Below are positions 10,908-17,849 of a stretch of 64,000 nt of DNA, piece by piece. How positions within the stretch are numbered: position 1 is the first letter of the stretch; each line of letters begins with the position of its first letter. Origin of the DNA: Candidatus Heimdallarchaeota archaeon (GTDB taxonomy: Archaea; Asgardarchaeota; Heimdallarchaeia; Heimdallarchaeales; Heimdallarchaeaceae). The stretch spans positions 96,001 through 160,000 of the forward strand of contig JAUVXV010000001.1 in the NCBI GenBank assembly GCA_030603365.1. Direction: 5' to 3'. Below the pieces are notes generated by a model, which did not search any database, was not told where the DNA came from, and worked only from the letters and a program-made list of their open reading frames with translations. A program made the position numbers and the translations under genes.

Positions 10908-10980
10908 TTTGAAGAAATACTCTCTTTCTATTCTTTTTAAGTCATTAAAGAAAACCATTTTAAATATCAAATAGTCGAAT

Positions 10981-11092
10981 TTACTTGCTGGGTATTGAAG
11001 ATTACAATTTGTAATCGTTAATAAACCTTAAAAATTGTACTCATACCCGCTATTGTAGTCAGTAGTAACAAGATGTAACAGGAGAATTAAGA
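10981..11092 (+). promoter_or_regulatory. Putative structured 5' leader of the rpl22 operon
   Basis: GC-T-GGGTAT-T-GA/TCATACCCGC stem enclosing GATTACA/TGTAATC hairpin; TTTAAATA TATA-like box at ~10959. Confidence 0.45.
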
Positions 11093-11557
11093 TTGCCAAA
11101 ATATAAATATTCCATTCAAACAGATCCTGATAGGTCAGCAAAAGCCTCAGCACGAGAAATTGATATTAGTCGAAAGGCTGCTAGAGAAATATGCAATACA
11201 ATAAAAGGAATGACAATTCATCAGAGTATGGAATTTCTTGAGAGTGTTATTGCTAAAAAAATTGCTGTCCCCTATAGGCGACATAAAAGAAATGTTGGTC
11301 ATAAGAGTACAGTAATAGGTTGGGGTCCAGGAAGGTTTCCAGTTAAAGCTGCAAATGAAATTCTTAAAGTTGTAAAGAATCTTGAAAATAATGCTGAAAA
11401 CAACCAATTGCAACTGGATAGGTGTAAGATTACTCATGCTGTAACTTTACTAGGTTCGAAACAACAAGGGATTTTCCATAGAGCTCAAGGAAGATCGACA
11501 CCTAAAACAAGACAATTTGTTCATGTTGAGTTAGTAGCTGAAGTAGCTGAGATGTGA
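11093..11557 (+). CDS. rpl22: 50S ribosomal protein uL22
   Basis: ISRKAAREICNTIKGM, GRFPVKAA; TTG start with GGAG upstream. Confidence 0.96.
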   Translation: MPKYKYSIQTDPDRSAKASAREIDISRKAAREICNTIKGMTIHQSMEFLESVIAKKIAVPYRRHKRNVGHKSTVIGWGPGRFPVKAANEILKVVKNLENNAENNQLQLDRCKITHAVTLLGSKQQGIFHRAQGRSTPKTRQFVHVELVAEVAEM

Positions 11558-11562
11558 TAGAT

Positions 11563-12597
11563 ATGCCCACTACAAAAGATTACTTAATTAAAAAATACCA
11601 AAAAAACGCTATAGATGAATTTCTAGCACTAGAATTAAAGAATGCAGAATACGGGGGAGTTGAATTAAGACGAACACCTCTTGGAGACCGTGTGATTCTT
11701 CGAGTGGGAAGAGTAGGTTTAGCAATAGGGGGAAGAGGGAGAAATATTCATAGAATTACAGATGCCTTGCGTGAAACTTATGGTCTTGATAATCCACAAA
11801 TTGAGGTCGCAGAAGTAGAAAATCCTGAAATTGATGCACGAATTATGGCTTTTCGATTAGCTTCTTCACTAGAAAGAGGTCGTCACTTCAGAAGAAGTGC
11901 TCACGGTATTATTAGACGTATTTTGGCTAGTGGGGCCAAAGGTGTTGAAATAAAGATTAGTGGAAAAATAACCAGCCAAAGATCAAGAGTCGAAACTTTT
12001 AGAGCTGGATTTGTTGCAAAAGCTGGAGATCCTGCTGATCGGTATGTGGATTTAGGTAAAGCTCAAGCTCTTATTAGACGAGGATTACTGGGAATTCAAG
12101 TTCGTATAATGCGTGGTGATGCAATTCTTCCCGACGACATTGAAATCGAAGCTGAACCAACTTCAACATCAATGATAGTTGATACAGGCCCAGAAGAACC
12201 AGAGATTGCTGAAGAAATTAGTGAAGAAGTCATTGATGAATTAGAGGAATACCCAGATATAGAAGAAGAGCTAGAACAAATAGCCGAAGAAGTTTCTTCG
12301 AAAACCAAGGCTGATGACGTATTACAAGAACTAGATGAAGTTGATAAAGCATCAAAAGCAAAACAAAAGAAAATATCGAAGAAAGTTGAGAAGGAACCAG
12401 AAACCTCAGAAACCAAAGTCAAAGAAACCAAGCCAAAAGAGACTAAAGTCAAAGAAACCAAGCCAAAAGAGACCAAAGTCAAAGAAACCAAGCCAAAAGA
12501 GACCAAAGTCAAAGAAACCAAGCCAAAAGAGACTAAAGCCACTAAATCTGAAGAAGTTAAAGAAACCAAATCAAAATCGAAAGCAAAAGAAGAGTAA
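11563..12597 (+). CDS. rps3: 30S ribosomal protein uS3 with acidic and KETK-repeat C-terminal extension
   Basis: KH domain IGGRGRNI, GAKGVEIKISGK; about 140 aa low-complexity tail. Confidence 0.96.
   Translation: MPTTKDYLIKKYQKNAIDEFLALELKNAEYGGVELRRTPLGDRVILRVGRVGLAIGGRGRNIHRITDALRETYGLDNPQIEVAEVENPEIDARIMAFRLASSLERGRHFRRSAHGIIRRILASGAKGVEIKISGKITSQRSRVETFRAGFVAKAGDPADRYVDLGKAQALIRRGLLGIQVRIMRGDAILPDDIEIEAEPTSTSMIVDTGPEEPEIAEEISEEVIDELEEYPDIEEELEQIAEEVSSKTKADDVLQELDEVDKASKAKQKKISKKVEKEPETSETKVKETKPKETKVKETKPKETKVKETKPKETKVKETKPKETKATKSEEVKETKSKSKAKEE
12409..12538 (+). repeat. 30-nt coding tandem repeat, about 4.3 copies (ETKVKETKPK)
   Basis: GA(A/G)AC(C/T)AAAGTCAAAGAAACCAAGCCAAAA units at 12409, 12439, 12469, 12499. 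Confidence 0.95.
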
Positions 12598-12606
12598 GGT
12601 GTAAAA

Positions 12607-12810
12607 ATGGCATTAATCAGAAATAGCGAAATAAGAAAAATGAACAAAGATCAAAGACTTAGAAAGCTAGAAGAGTTTAAGAAAAAACTCTTTACTGTCA
12701 AATCTGAACTATCATCGGGAGGTTCTATTGAGAATCCCGGTCAGATTCAAGAATATAAAAAAGCCATTGCAAGGATCAAGACAATTATGGTTGAGTTAGA
12801 TGAAATTTAA
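12607..12810 (+). CDS. rpl29: 50S ribosomal protein uL29
   Basis: EIRKM...ENPGQIQEYKKAIARIKT; synteny. Confidence 0.93.
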   Translation: MALIRNSEIRKMNKDQRLRKLEEFKKKLFTVKSELSSGGSIENPGQIQEYKKAIARIKTIMVELDEI

Positions 12811-13118
12811 TGTCAAATAAAAATAAGAAAGATTGTAAAAAAGCTTCAGTTTGGAAGCAACTTACTTTGTCTTTGATAGGTTTGAAAGTTTGGATTGTAA
12901 AAAGTTCTTCAAAAGACTTGGAGGGAATAAAGGGTATTATTAGGGATGAAACCCATAATTTACTTAAAATTGAAACAAAAAACAAACTTTTGTCAATACC
13001 AAAATCCCATCAAATTTTTACGATAGAAATCAAGGATGGATCAAAGTTATTAGTTGATGGTCAACTTCTAGTTGGTAATCCTGAGAACAGAATTAAGAAA
13101 AAAATAAGAAACTGGTAG
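12810..13118 (+). CDS. rnp1: RNase P protein component 1 (Rpp29/POP4)
   Basis: LIGLKVWI...GIKGIIRDETHN...IPK...VDGQLLVGNPENR; canonical position. Confidence 0.9.
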   Translation: MSNKNKKDCKKASVWKQLTLSLIGLKVWIVKSSSKDLEGIKGIIRDETHNLLKIETKNKLLSIPKSHQIFTIEIKDGSKLLVDGQLLVGNPENRIKKKIRNW

Positions 13119-13248
13119 AATCAAACTGATTTAGATTTTCAGTTTTTATAAGCGGAACTTATTGTTTACAAAATACTTCACTATAAAAAATATTAAAAAG
13201 ATATAAGTTTGCAGAAACTTGAAACATATTCGTATAGAATACAGATTC

Positions 13249-13354
13249 GTACAGGTAATTGACGTCTTACTTCAAAATAATTTGAAGCTATGATTGCTTT
13301 CCTTGGTTTTCAAAACGAGGAAATGCATGGGTATAAGACGCTGTACCGAGGTGA
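13249..13354 (+). promoter_or_regulatory. Putative multi-branched RNA leader upstream of rps17
   Basis: Nested stems GTACAG/CTGTAC, CGTCTTA/TAAGACG, CTTCAAA/TTTGAAG, TTTCCTT/GAGGAAA, ending 1 nt before the SD GAGGTGA. Confidence 0.6.
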
Positions 13355-13360
13355 AAAAAA

Positions 13361-13693
13361 ATGAGTAAAGTAAGGAATATAGGTATTCCCGGTGTTGAAC
13401 CACCTTCTACTGAGTGTGATGATATAAGATGTCCTTTTCATGGAAGTCTTCCTGTAAGAGGAAGAATATTCACAGGAAAGGTGGTTTCTGACAAAATGAG
13501 AAGAACTGTTGTTATTAGACGAGATTATCTGAAGTATGTTAAAAAATACCGAAGATACGAACGTGCTCATGGGAAAATTTCTGCTCACAATCCTCCTTGT
13601 TTGAACGTAAAAGAAGGAGATATAGTTGTGGCAGCAGAGTGTAGGCCACTAGCTAAGACTGTAGGTTTTGTCGTGGTTCAGAAAGTAAGTTAA
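13361..13693 (+). CDS. rps17: 30S ribosomal protein uS17
   Basis: [27 protein letters not shown]. Confidence 0.97.
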
Positions 13694-13702
13694 GGTGATC
13701 AA

Positions 13703-14119
13703 ATGGCAAAGAGAAAAGTTATTGGTAGACCCCAAGTACATATTTCCAAAGGGTTAATAGTTGGTTCTAAAATAAAGAGCGCAGATAATTCTGGAGCACG
13801 CATTGTACAAATTATAGCTGTTAAGAACTACAGAGGTAGACTTAATCGAATTCCCAAAGCATCAGTTGCAGATATGGTAATAGTATCTGTTAAACAAGGA
13901 ACTCCACAGAGAAGAAAACAAATTTTTCCTGCTGTGATTGTAAGACAAAAACTAGCTTTTCGTCGTAGATCGGGCGATTGGATCCAGTTTGAAGAGAATG
14001 CAGTAGTTTTGACAAATGAAGTAGGTGACCCATTAGGGAGTGAAATTCGAGGTCCAGTAGCTAAAGAAGCAGCTGAAAGATGGCCAAGAATCGCACATCA
14101 AGCTTCGATAATAGTGTAG
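13703..14119 (+). CDS. rpl14: 50S ribosomal protein uL14
   Basis: ADNSGAR, AVIVRQ, FEENAVV, GPVAKEAAERWPRIA. Confidence 0.97.
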   Translation: MAKRKVIGRPQVHISKGLIVGSKIKSADNSGARIVQIIAVKNYRGRLNRIPKASVADMVIVSVKQGTPQRRKQIFPAVIVRQKLAFRRRSGDWIQFEENAVVLTNEVGDPLGSEIRGPVAKEAAERWPRIAHQASIIV

Positions 14120-14695
14120 GTGAAAATGATGAAACAAACACAATCAAAACAACCTCGAAAACAGAGAAAAAGCCATTTTAAAGCTGATTATCATCTGAGG
14201 AATCGAAAAATGACTGCACTTCTATCTCATTCCTTGAGAGAAAAATATGGTATCAAACGTCTCCCTATTCATAAAGACGATAAAGTGATAGTTTACAAAA
14301 ATGTATCAAAAGATGAGGAAATCAAGGGAAAAGTGATACGAGTTATTCCCCAGAGATTTTCTATTCATGTTGAAGGACACAGTAAAGAAAAAGCTGATGG
14401 TACAATTGTTAGTTTTCCAGTTCATCCAAGTAATATTGTTATTACAGCTCTAAATCTTAGAGATAAGAAAAGACGTGAGATAATTAAAAGACGTTCAGGA
14501 AAAGAAATCACAGAAGAAGAGCTAACAGAAGGAATTTTCGATGATGAGGAAGAACTCGAAGAAGAGCTTGAAGCTGATGATGCTTTAGAAAGTGAAGATT
14601 TACTAGATGAAGAATTTGAAGAAATAGAACTGGATGAACCCGAGGAAGAACTCAAAGAAGAATCCGAAGTTGAACAAGAGGAGGAATCATCATGA
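14120..14695 (+). CDS. rpl24: 50S ribosomal protein uL24 with acidic tail
   Basis: SKQPRKQRK, LREKYG, VHPSNIVI; about 60 aa D/E-rich tail. Confidence 0.95.
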   Translation: MKMMKQTQSKQPRKQRKSHFKADYHLRNRKMTALLSHSLREKYGIKRLPIHKDDKVIVYKNVSKDEEIKGKVIRVIPQRFSIHVEGHSKEKADGTIVSFPVHPSNIVITALNLRDKKRREIIKRRSGKEITEEELTEGIFDDEEELEEELEADDALESEDLLDEEFEEIELDEPEEELKEESEVEQEEESS

Positions 14696-15438
14696 CAAAG
14701 GGTGGAGGAAAACGACACTTAAAACGATATGTTGTTTCTAAACACATTCCAATCCATAAAAAAGCTTTCACATTTACAGTAAGACCAGCTCCTGGTCCTC
14801 ATTCAGCAGATGACAGTATCCCTGTAGCAATTTTGCTCAGAGATATGTTTCAATATGCACGAAATATGAGTGAAGTTAAACGAATTTTATTTGAGAGAAA
14901 TGTGGTAATTGATGGTAAAGTAAAAATCAACAGAAAGCATCCTCTAGGATTCATGGATGTTGTTTCTTTACCTAAAATGCAGAAACACTTCAGAATGGTT
15001 TATGCGCTTAAACAAGGATTAAGAGCTGTTCCAATTAAAGAAGCTGAAACAAAAGAAAAACTGTGTAAGATAAAAAACAAAACCGCAATAAAAGAAGGAC
15101 TGATACAGCTTAATCTACATGATGGAAGAAATATAGTTCTCAGTAAAGATGAAACTGCAAAATCTTCCTATTCAACCCATGATACCATAAAAATCTCTCT
15201 TCCTAATCAACAAATAATTGAAAAATATGAGTTGAAAGTTGGAAATTATGGCTTTGTAACTAGTGGTAGATGGATGGGTATGCACGGAACCATTGAAGAG
15301 ATTAGTACCCATGGTACTAACAAGACAAAAACAGTTACATTGAGTACTCCTGAAGGAGAACAATTAGTTACTCTTCTCAGATATATCTTCGTTGTAGGGA
15401 ACAAATCCCCAAGTGTAACTATTACTAGCGAGAAGTAG
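14692..15438 (+). CDS. rps4e: 30S ribosomal protein eS4
   Basis: RHLKR, RPAPGPH, GFMDVVS, QLNLHDGRNI. Confidence 0.97.
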   Translation: MTKGGGKRHLKRYVVSKHIPIHKKAFTFTVRPAPGPHSADDSIPVAILLRDMFQYARNMSEVKRILFERNVVIDGKVKINRKHPLGFMDVVSLPKMQKHFRMVYALKQGLRAVPIKEAETKEKLCKIKNKTAIKEGLIQLNLHDGRNIVLSKDETAKSSYSTHDTIKISLPNQQIIEKYELKVGNYGFVTSGRWMGMHGTIEEISTHGTNKTKTVTLSTPEGEQLVTLLRYIFVVGNKSPSVTITSEK

Positions 15439-15448
15439 GTGAAGAAGG

Positions 15449-16015
15449 ATGACAGAAGAAGTTATGGAAGAAGAACAATTTGTACCCCGATTCGCTGAAG
15501 AATGGGAAAAACACCCTATGAAAAAACCAAGATTAAAAGCTCTTATTGTAAATACTTGTGTTGGTGAATCTGGTCCTACATATGAAAGAGCAAAAAGTAT
15601 ACTCCGTCAAATCACAAATAGGGAACCAGTAGAAAAACCAGCAAAAGAATCTATAAGGGGATTTGGAATTCGTAAAGGAGAACCCATCGCTGCAGTAGTG
15701 ACTATACGAGGAGAAGAAGCACAAACCTTGCTCAGAAGATTTCTATATGCTTATGATTATGAAATCAAATCAAGTTCTTTCGATCAACAAGGAAACTTTG
15801 CTTTTGGAATTACTGAACACGTTGATATTGAAGACGCTCCTTTTGATCCAATGCTAGGAACAATTGGTTTCAATGTAGTCGTAAAGATTGAGAGACCAGG
15901 ATACAGAGTAAAATATAGGCAAAGAAAGAGACAAAAACTCCCTAAGAAACATTTTGTATCTCCTGAAGAAGCAATGGAGTTTGTGACAACTGAATTTGAT
16001 ATTAAGGTTATTTAG
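15449..16015 (+). CDS. rpl5: 50S ribosomal protein uL5
   Basis: FGIRKGEPIA, FDQQGNFAFGITEH, RPGYRV. Confidence 0.97.
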   Translation: MTEEVMEEEQFVPRFAEEWEKHPMKKPRLKALIVNTCVGESGPTYERAKSILRQITNREPVEKPAKESIRGFGIRKGEPIAAVVTIRGEEAQTLLRRFLYAYDYEIKSSSFDQQGNFAFGITEHVDIEDAPFDPMLGTIGFNVVVKIERPGYRVKYRQRKRQKLPKKHFVSPEEAMEFVTTEFDIKVI

Positions 16016-16024
16016 GTGACGGAA

Positions 16025-16192
16025 ATGCAGATAAAACGAGAAATCAAATATGGAAAAGGATCAAGAACATGCAGACGTTGTGGAACTCATAAAGCTATCA
16101 TTAGGAGAGGAGGTCTATTTGTTTGCCGCCGCTGCATAAGAGAGATTTATTCAAATATCGGCTTCAAAAAGACAGGAAGTCGTGGAGGATAG
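16025..16192 (+). CDS. rps14: 30S ribosomal protein uS14, Zn-binding type (absent from ORF track)
   Basis: Manual translation [55 protein letters not shown]; GGTGA SD. Confidence 0.95.
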
Positions 16193-16196
16193 AAAA

Positions 16197-16586
16197 ATGC
16201 AAATGGATACTCTAGCAGATACAATGTCTGCTATACTAAATGCAGAGAAAACAGGTAAAAAGACCGTCACTGTTAAACCAGCAAGTAAGATGATTGCAAA
16301 TGTTCTAAGAACAGCTCAACGAGCAGGTTATCTTGGAGAACTCGAATACATCGAAAATAATCGCGGTGGAATGTTCGAGATTCAATTGTTGGGACGTATC
16401 AATAAATGTGGTGTTATTAAACCTCGTTTTCCAGTGAAAAAAGATCATCTAGAAGACGAAGAAAGAAAGTTTCTACCCGCAAGAGGTTTTGGAATTCTCA
16501 TAATGACAACTCCTGAAGGCGTGATGACCCATGAAGATGCTAAAGAAAAAGCAATAGGTGGTCGTCTAGTGGCCTATATATATTAA
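16197..16586 (+). CDS. rps8: 30S ribosomal protein uS8
   Basis: LGRINKCGVIKPRF, FLPARGFGILIMTT. Confidence 0.97.
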   Translation: MQMDTLADTMSAILNAEKTGKKTVTVKPASKMIANVLRTAQRAGYLGELEYIENNRGGMFEIQLLGRINKCGVIKPRFPVKKDHLEDEERKFLPARGFGILIMTTPEGVMTHEDAKEKAIGGRLVAYIY

Positions 16587-16597
16587 GGTGATATGTA

Positions 16598-17149
16598 ATG
16601 AAGCAACTCTATGTAGAAGCAGCAATTGATATTCCTGAAGAATTGAAATTAAACATAAAAGACAAAGTTGTTACAGTAGAAGGACCTAAAGGAACTCTAA
16701 TTAGAAACTTTGAAAATGTTGATTTTGAAATAAACAAAAAAGGGAAAAAGGTCAATATTAAAGCCTATTACATCAATAAAAAGCGAAAAGCAGCTACTCT
16801 TGCTGTTGTGGGTTATATCAATAATATGATTAAAGGCGTGTCACAAGGGTATGTCTATAAATCAAAAATAATCTTTAGTCACTTTCCTATAACAGTTGAA
16901 CCAGATAACAAAAAGAAAATTGTAACTATCAAGAACCTTTATGGTGGAAGGAAAAACATTATTGTAAGAATTATGGGTCAAGAAACCAAAGTTTCTATAG
17001 ATAAGGACGATGTAATTATTGAAGGAATTGACAAAGAAGCTGTTGGTCAAACTACAGCAAACATGCAAGAAGCTTGCAGATTGCGTGGTAAGAGAAAGAA
17101 AGATCCTGAAACTTTTATGGATGGCGTATGGTTGTGGCATAAAGAATAG
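16598..17149 (+). CDS. rpl6: 50S ribosomal protein uL6
   Basis: VEGPKGTL, NMIKGV, SHFPI, KDPETFMDG. Confidence 0.97.
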   Translation: MKQLYVEAAIDIPEELKLNIKDKVVTVEGPKGTLIRNFENVDFEINKKGKKVNIKAYYINKKRKAATLAVVGYINNMIKGVSQGYVYKSKIIFSHFPITVEPDNKKKIVTIKNLYGGRKNIIVRIMGQETKVSIDKDDVIIEGIDKEAVGQTTANMQEACRLRGKRKKDPETFMDGVWLWHKE

Positions 17150-17312
17150 CCACATCTATTTTTATTTTTTATTTCGAATTAACTCTATTTCATAGTGCTG
17201 TTTCTTGAAAATTAATACATCTAAATCATTTTCACAATTTCTTAACAATAAAAAGTATTAAAAACTCAAGAAGGAAGGTAGCGTACATTACAAAGGTAAC
17301 ATTCTACTGTGA

Positions 17313-17849
17313 GTGCCTATGACAATCAATAAAAAGAAATTATTGGAAAAACGAAAAAAAATCAATGCTCGTAGACCAAAGTTTGTACGTCAAGAAAGTT
17401 GGCGATACAACCGTGTCAAAAAGAGTTGGCGTAAGCCAAAGGGTATTGATAATAAAATGTTGGAAAAGCGAAGAGGTTACCCTTCGATGGTTAGCATCGG
17501 TTATAGGGGACCTAAAGCTGTCAGAGGTCTACATCCTTCGGGTTATCAGGTAGTTCATGTTGCAAATATCTACGAACTTGACGAAGTAGATAAAGAAAAC
17601 GAAGCAATTATTATTAAGCACACTGTAGGTGCTCGAAAACGGCAGACTATTATAGACACTGCGTCCGATTTGGGGCTTAAAGTACTTAATCCTCCTTCTC
17701 GAGTAGAAGAATTTGGTGAAGTACTCGAAGAAGGTTTGCTTGAAGAAGAATATGAACTCCTTGATGATGAATTCGAACTCGATGAAGAGATCGAAATGGA
17801 TGAAGACCTAGAATCAGATGAAGACCTAGAGGAGGAATCTTCATCATAA
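17313..17849 (+). CDS. rpl32e: 50S ribosomal protein eL32 with acidic tail
   Basis: RPKFVRQES, WRKPKGIDNK, RGLHPSG. Confidence 0.96.
   Translation: MPMTINKKKLLEKRKKINARRPKFVRQESWRYNRVKKSWRKPKGIDNKMLEKRRGYPSMVSIGYRGPKAVRGLHPSGYQVVHVANIYELDEVDKENEAIIIKHTVGARKRQTIIDTASDLGLKVLNPPSRVEEFGEVLEEGLLEEEYELLDDEFELDEEIEMDEDLESDEDLEEESSS

Follow-up and report, generated by a model that had tools for sequence, protein, structure and literature searches.

Known or predicted r-leaders, the autogenous translational leaders of ribosomal-protein mRNAs, amount to a handful in archaea. Those predicted by Eckert and Weinberg (2020, PMC7247131) are L4-Archaeoglobi, eL15-Euryarchaeota, S15-Halobacteria and S15-Methanomicrobia; S17, L14 and L24 are unmentioned in that survey. 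The literature searched yielded no r-leader from Asgard archaea and none for a spc-type operon in archaea. In E. coli, the spc operon, which encodes uL14, uL24, uL5, uS14, uS8 and uL6, is controlled through the uS8 operator, a helix with an internal loop that lies where the third gene (rplE) begins and mimics 16S helix 21 (PMC10931766; PMC4176348).

Here we describe a three-armed folded RNA that adjoins the Shine-Dalgarno (SD) sequence of rps17 and heads an eight-gene ribosomal-protein operon in one family of Asgard archaea. The window, i.e. the whole stretch of DNA that was analysed, comprises 64,000 nucleotides of a Candidatus Heimdallarchaeota genome (contig JAUVXV010000001.1, positions 96,001 to 160,000). 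All coordinates below refer to the window, and the features of the element and its operon lie on the forward strand. The element is located in a 242-nt gap between rnp1 (RNase P p29, 12810-13118) and rps17 (13361-13693). Like the E. coli uS8 operator, it is a structured mRNA site and probably serves translational feedback. Unlike that operator, it forms a three-way junction, lies in the 5′ leader of rps17 and has no equivalent of the U641 part of the S8 core. With the archaeal r-leaders and the methanogen L1 operator it shares its place before ribosomal-protein genes, and the predicted archaeal leaders are likewise lineage-restricted and covarying. However, those leaders (L1, L4, eL15, S15) belong to other genes and another lineage, and the element matches no Rfam model. 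With Rfam 15, no family was found for it at the gathering threshold, where the window yields two tRNAs only, and nothing was found at the E-value level (best local E-value 1.1). A description of the element was also not found in the literature, in a search whose scope left out most subscription journals. These results agree with the initial annotation, made from the letters of the window, which knew of no archaeal leader at this position.

The distribution of the element was assessed by anchoring loci on uS17. The same motif was found 5′ of the start codon in 23 of 23 loci of the genus and also in six genomes from four other genera of the family. The genomes, from five genera in all, include Ca. 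Heimdallarchaeum endolithica. Every family genome in which rps17 was found (29/29) carries one copy directly before this gene. A covariance model recovered a single copy in 29 of 31 family genomes, and the two genomes without a match also lack an rps17 match. This model was trained on the same copies that it recovers, and the family count therefore rests on the uS17-anchored loci and on an exact pattern. Among 42 loose pattern matches in metagenomes, the inner core was present in 14, each of which precedes rps17. The covariance model gave no match elsewhere in the class (52 genomes) or in a phylum sample of 137 genomes, under strict filters that could miss diverged forms. No second copy was found in the own genome. 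Seven pattern matches on viral contigs, none with the inner core or rps17, were taken as chance.

To describe the fold, the region 13240-13365 was compared with shuffled controls, a check that had been proposed at the outset. The native sequence folds with -30.6 kcal/mol (z -2.86), which was equalled by 1 of 200 shuffles. For 34 distinct homologues, z ranged from -1.6 to -6.0 with a mean of -3.07, and nearly all of these copies adopt the same three-way junction. In the consensus fold of the 34 copies, 16 of 28 pairs show a change on both sides. Paired cells amount to 95.8%; this share falls to 85.1% on shuffling and to 38-46% when the partners are slid, and the score was reached by 0 of 500 shuffles, a test that is inflated by the kinship of the genomes. 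The compensatory changes are spread over several genera, for example a replacement of C-G by A-U at the base of P3, and two P1 pairs show compensatory change in Heimdallarchaeum. The three-way junction directly 5′ of the rps17 SD, as initially proposed, is thus both conserved and covarying, and we consider the element very probably to be a real structured RNA. It behaves like an r-leader in the features tested, which are covariation, a fixed cis position before a ribosomal-protein gene and a single copy per genome. On this basis, we read it as an autogenous translational leader of the uS17-uL6 mRNA, with a probability of roughly 70%.

All strands named in the initial annotation are present at the positions given there, and the comparison with relatives refines how they pair. 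The outer stem P1 had been placed at 13249-13254 and 13341-13346. This register is favoured in this genome alone (pair probability ~0.7); its four testable pairs are formed in 60% of cells, with one found in just 5 of 34 sequences. In the conserved register, the outer stem is shifted to 13254-13257 and 13344-13347, where 96% is paired. P2 is formed by a 5′ strand at 13261-13268, with invariant GACGUC and a bulged A13262, and by a 3′ strand at 13335-13341 with invariant AGACGC. The core of the P2 first proposed was retained, whereas its last pair, A13269-U13334, is broken in 15 of 34 sequences; A13269 is instead an invariant junction nucleotide. P3 (13270-13287) is a hairpin of variable sequence and length in which six of six pairs show compensatory change. 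P4 consists of three pairs, a four-base bulge, two pairs and a distal stem. Its proximal 5′ strand (13288-13296) reads C-Y-R, followed by the four-base bulge, which ends in invariant AU, and then by UG. The proximal 3′ strand with the junction (13326-13334) carries invariant AUGGGU, followed by two or three free positions. The distal stem-loop (13297-13325) corresponds to the P4 of the earlier description; it covaries, as does P3, and measures 9 to 33 nt in relatives, with P4 being minimal in Heimdallarchaeum. P4 stacks directly on P3, and a small internal loop separates P1 from P2. The 3′ strand of P1 abuts the SD, which extends from 13348, as annotated, to 13354 and lies 5-7 nt past P2 in 33 of 33 copies checked. 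Upstream of P1 lies an A/U-rich variable region (13227-13252) that can form a hairpin, P0, in most promoter-bearing copies; its sequence is unconserved and it is absent in one genus (g10).

Overlooked at first was an invariant core of ~20 positions, all of which lie within P2, the junction and proximal P4, while the distal stems vary freely around it. Since the P2 core never varies, covariation gives it no support. Such a combination of a fixed junction and variable arms is what a ligand site would be expected to show. The conserved letters could also be DNA signals, either a palindromic factor site, as GACGTC is palindromic, or a second TATA-like box at ~13331-13338 for a short transcript. 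We consider this the least probable of the readings weighed here, and hardly credible: the compensatory changes in P1, P3 and P4 and a P4 pair that is split evenly between A-U and G-U (17/34 each) indicate RNA, and the two bases to which 13331-13338 owes its TATA-like look occur in no fewer than nine different combinations among relatives.

A start of transcription downstream of the stems would have left the element out of the mRNA. An extended BRE/TATA promoter is located at 13176-13200. It is conserved in four of the five genera, ~60-80 nt 5′ of the core, and is accompanied by a pyrimidine-purine step at a fixed offset (23 of 32 loci), which here is the predicted initiator at 13220-13221. 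Transcription is therefore predicted from the sequence to start at ~13221, upstream of the stems, with a leader of ~140 nt. A sigma-70 promoter scan is unsuited to archaea. With the start site being a prediction, none of the three outcomes that the initial annotation had named as refuting was encountered. The controlled unit, uS17, uL14, uL24, eS4, uL5, uS14, uS8 and uL6, extends over 13361-17149. In 20 family loci, the intergenic spacing from uS17 to uL6 is -8 to +16 nt, with one unit ending at uS8, and the 124-1905 nt that come after the unit usually contain a second promoter. This supports the extent of the unit assumed from the start. Within the window, a second copy of the extended promoter at 17241-17264, after a T-rich tract, gives eL32 its own promoter and marks the probable end of the uS17 unit. 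It is the one other copy in the genome, allowing up to 2 mismatches. Both copies contain CTTAACAAT upstream of the BRE/TATA and head only the uS17 and eL32 units here; the shared motif may be a common transcription-factor site.

The surroundings of the element have been rearranged repeatedly. Of the 23 genus loci, 15 have something other than rnp1 upstream (a divergent uL22-uS3 block, valS or other genes), and the element persists through these rearrangements. Part of the genus has the uL22-uS3-uL29-p29 block in inverted orientation, divergent from rps17, and rearrangements have recurred at the gap before this gene. The operon had been called normally compact around this gap. This applies to four other families of the class, in which p29 abuts uS17 and no room is left for a leader, but in this family the gap is usually the start of the operon. 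Genus g10 lacks the promoter, and its element begins 4 nt past the rnp1 stop codon. Because g10 keeps the element without the promoter, the element appears to act at the mRNA level and to travel with the rps17 mRNA rather than with the promoter.

The occurrence both behind a promoter and within a longer transcript would also fit an mRNA processing or stability element that is recognised by a nuclease or by a regulator encoded elsewhere and adjusts operon output with no autogenous feedback involved. In one methanogen, the 5′ and intergenic regions of ribosomal-protein operons are enriched in processing sites, which alter translation (PMC5499594). However, ~20 invariant bases across the junction point to a specific ligand more than to a protective hairpin, and the position of the element is fixed relative to the SD, which makes this explanation improbable.

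Assuming that the element is an r-leader, the general feedback model of such leaders (PMC7247131, PMC10931766) suggests how it might work. Transcription would begin ~140 nt 5′ of the rps17 start codon. At times of rRNA shortage, one of the operon's proteins, then in surplus, would bind the invariant core and clamp P2 and the weak P1 stem adjoining the SD, which would hinder loading of the 30S subunit on rps17. The tightly spaced downstream genes would follow via translational coupling. The 3′ strand of P1 fills the 5-7 nt between P2 and the SD, and P1 is marginal, with 0 to 7 expected pairs in ensembles. The SD itself is mostly unpaired in ensembles (unpaired probability 0.64 on average), and across copies neither an anti-SD switch nor an alternative pairing was seen to be conserved. 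For these two reasons repression would be steric, and we infer steric hindrance by the bound protein as the simplest mechanism. In a crude test, clamping P2 alone left the computed cost of opening the initiation region unchanged in the four copies tested.

An invariant junction core with variable arms and an adjoining SD would also be compatible with a riboswitch for a small molecule or ion, by which the synthesis of ribosomal proteins would be tied to the growth state. This seems highly improbable: the element occurs as a single copy per genome and before rps17 only, no Rfam riboswitch matches it, and the alternative pairing of a switch is not conserved.

An autogenous leader would be bound by one of its own products, and the candidates are uS17, uL14, uL24, eS4, uL5, uS14, uS8 and uL6, since the unit encodes these. 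To compare the leader with rRNA-binding sites, as had been suggested initially, the four conserved strands were matched in any cyclic order to the rRNAs of this genome and of relatives. The search covered the own 16S and the first 2030 nt of the own 23S rRNA, with the last third of the 23S rRNA taken from relatives only. The top-scoring site in the own 16S and 23S rRNA is 23S helix 7, the Kt-7 site of uL24. Helix 7 has UAUGGG followed by AGACGC in its 5′ strand and GAC, GUCU and CCA in its loop and 3′ strand; the counterparts in the leader are YAUGGG, AGACGC, GAC-GUCU and CCR, and P3 is inserted at the position of the kink-turn. The leader thus repeats, in the same pairing register, the two strands of the distal stem together with the top of the basal stem and some of the terminal loop. 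The leader differs in being circularly permuted, in having a third helix in place of the kink and in missing the tandem G-A pairs.

Statistical support for helix 7 is modest. The match reached p 0.007-0.017 versus Markov rRNA (full strands, free trimming) and p 0.005 versus decoy leaders. It had first been spotted by eye, the test was built afterwards, and four scoring schemes were tried. A trimmed-block test (40.1 of 41.5, null maximum 31.8) was set aside as post hoc. Across the genus, helix 7 scores 31-34 against a null mean near 29. By plain alignment, the match was not significant (p 0.11-0.25), nor was it in genera g10, g12 and g13. In two of these three, helix 7 is changed and the likeness is weak, while the leader is unchanged; the leader is invariant at positions where helix 7 varies. 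In a kink-turn test, which looked for tandem G-A/A-G pairs beside a three-base bulge, the Kt-7 positions read U-A pairs in the consensus. A three-way junction at the place of a kink-turn is known from the k-junction (Wang et al. 2014, PMC4005666), but the G-A/A-A pairs that define it are not evident in the element, whose corresponding adenines lie in U-A pairs of the consensus fold. A non-standard form is still possible as far as the sequence shows.

L24 binds Kt-7 and brings about its folding (PMC4316175); it also belongs to the primary binders that initiate assembly (PMC2770661). The invariant strands reproduce 23S helix 7 with its pairing register kept and its order permuted, and for this reason we favour uL24 as ligand. 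Given a leader, this is our first choice at clearly less than even odds; taken over all readings it is a tentative one. The same caution applies to the full reading, in which the element may be a uL24-responsive translational leader that carries a permuted copy of 23S helix 7 with a three-way junction replacing the kink-turn. In the reviews consulted, uL24 is not described as an autogenous repressor. If uL24 is the ligand, it would be a new repressor protein, and the leader would be a new example of rRNA mimicry.

The initial list of candidate ligands, uS8, uS17 and eS4, did not contain uL24; its three members remain candidates. The binding sites of uS8, uS17 and eS4 lie in 16S rRNA. No site in 16S rRNA scored above the null, which counts against these three as ligands. 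The same r-leader could respond to uS8 or uS17 (or eS4) if its junction were recognised with little or no rRNA mimicry. As many r-leaders do not imitate rRNA (PMC7247131), such mimicry is not obligatory, and uS8 and uS17 therefore stay serious rivals. In favour of uS8, this protein represses the E. coli spc operon, which has six genes in common with the present unit (PMC10931766), and the invariant bulged A of the leader, set between invariant G-C pairs, loosely resembles A642. However, of the uS8 core (G597-C643 pair, U641 triple, unpaired A642; PMC4176348), only the bulged A was found, with no counterpart of the neighbouring unpaired U641, and the helix-21-like letters of P1 are replaced in Heimdallarchaeum with pairing retained. 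Protein uS17 is encoded by the first gene of the unit and is a primary binder. Given a leader, uS8 and uS17 are each possible, to an equal degree and less so than uL24, and eS4 is rather unlikely. Taken together, these proteins form a possible alternative that we place below the leader reading as a whole and do not prefer. Several other likenesses seen by eye were not above the null: 16S h7/h11 (uS17), h21 (uS8, eS4) and h25/h26, and 23S H19/H20, the H2/H25 linker and H31 (uL15). Protein uL15 is also encoded outside the unit.

The question bears on ribosomal-protein balance in the closest prokaryotic relatives of eukaryotes. With a small defined core and eight candidate ligands, this balance becomes testable in vitro without culture.

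Further observations were made on the rRNAs and the ribosomal-protein cluster. In the 16S rRNA genes of this genome (G000) and of G041, a hairpin insertion of ~30 nt separates helix 45 from the anti-SD; it is absent in G044-G046. Several 23S genes (G041, G030, G046) contain large A/T-rich insertions, with Rfam spans of 3219-4136 nt, which are probably introns. For 5S rRNA, no match was found in this genome, G041 or G030, and only sub-threshold matches in G044 and G045; the 5S rRNA of the family may be divergent or unassembled. The cluster starts without uL3-uL4-uL23-uL2-uS19 at a 185-nt gap before uL22 (10908-11092), which may hold another leader. In uS3 (11554-12597), a long acidic tail continues into a lysine-rich repeat (ETKVK/ETKPK units), and uL24 (14126-14695) and eL32 (17313-17849) have acidic tails.

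A different conserved structured leader was observed in a neighbouring family (f3) of the same order, where it occupies the same position, ~150 nt before rps17, in 10 of 10 loci (L028-L030, L045-L051). The covariance model of the present element does not match it. Its parts are an enclosing stem, a stretch CCUGA with its complement UCAGG further downstream, and a hairpin with a CCUC-type loop that could pair with the SD in several members. This leader is a second candidate r-leader, possibly with pseudoknots, and a single order of Heimdallarchaeia may thus have evolved control of this operon segment on two occasions.
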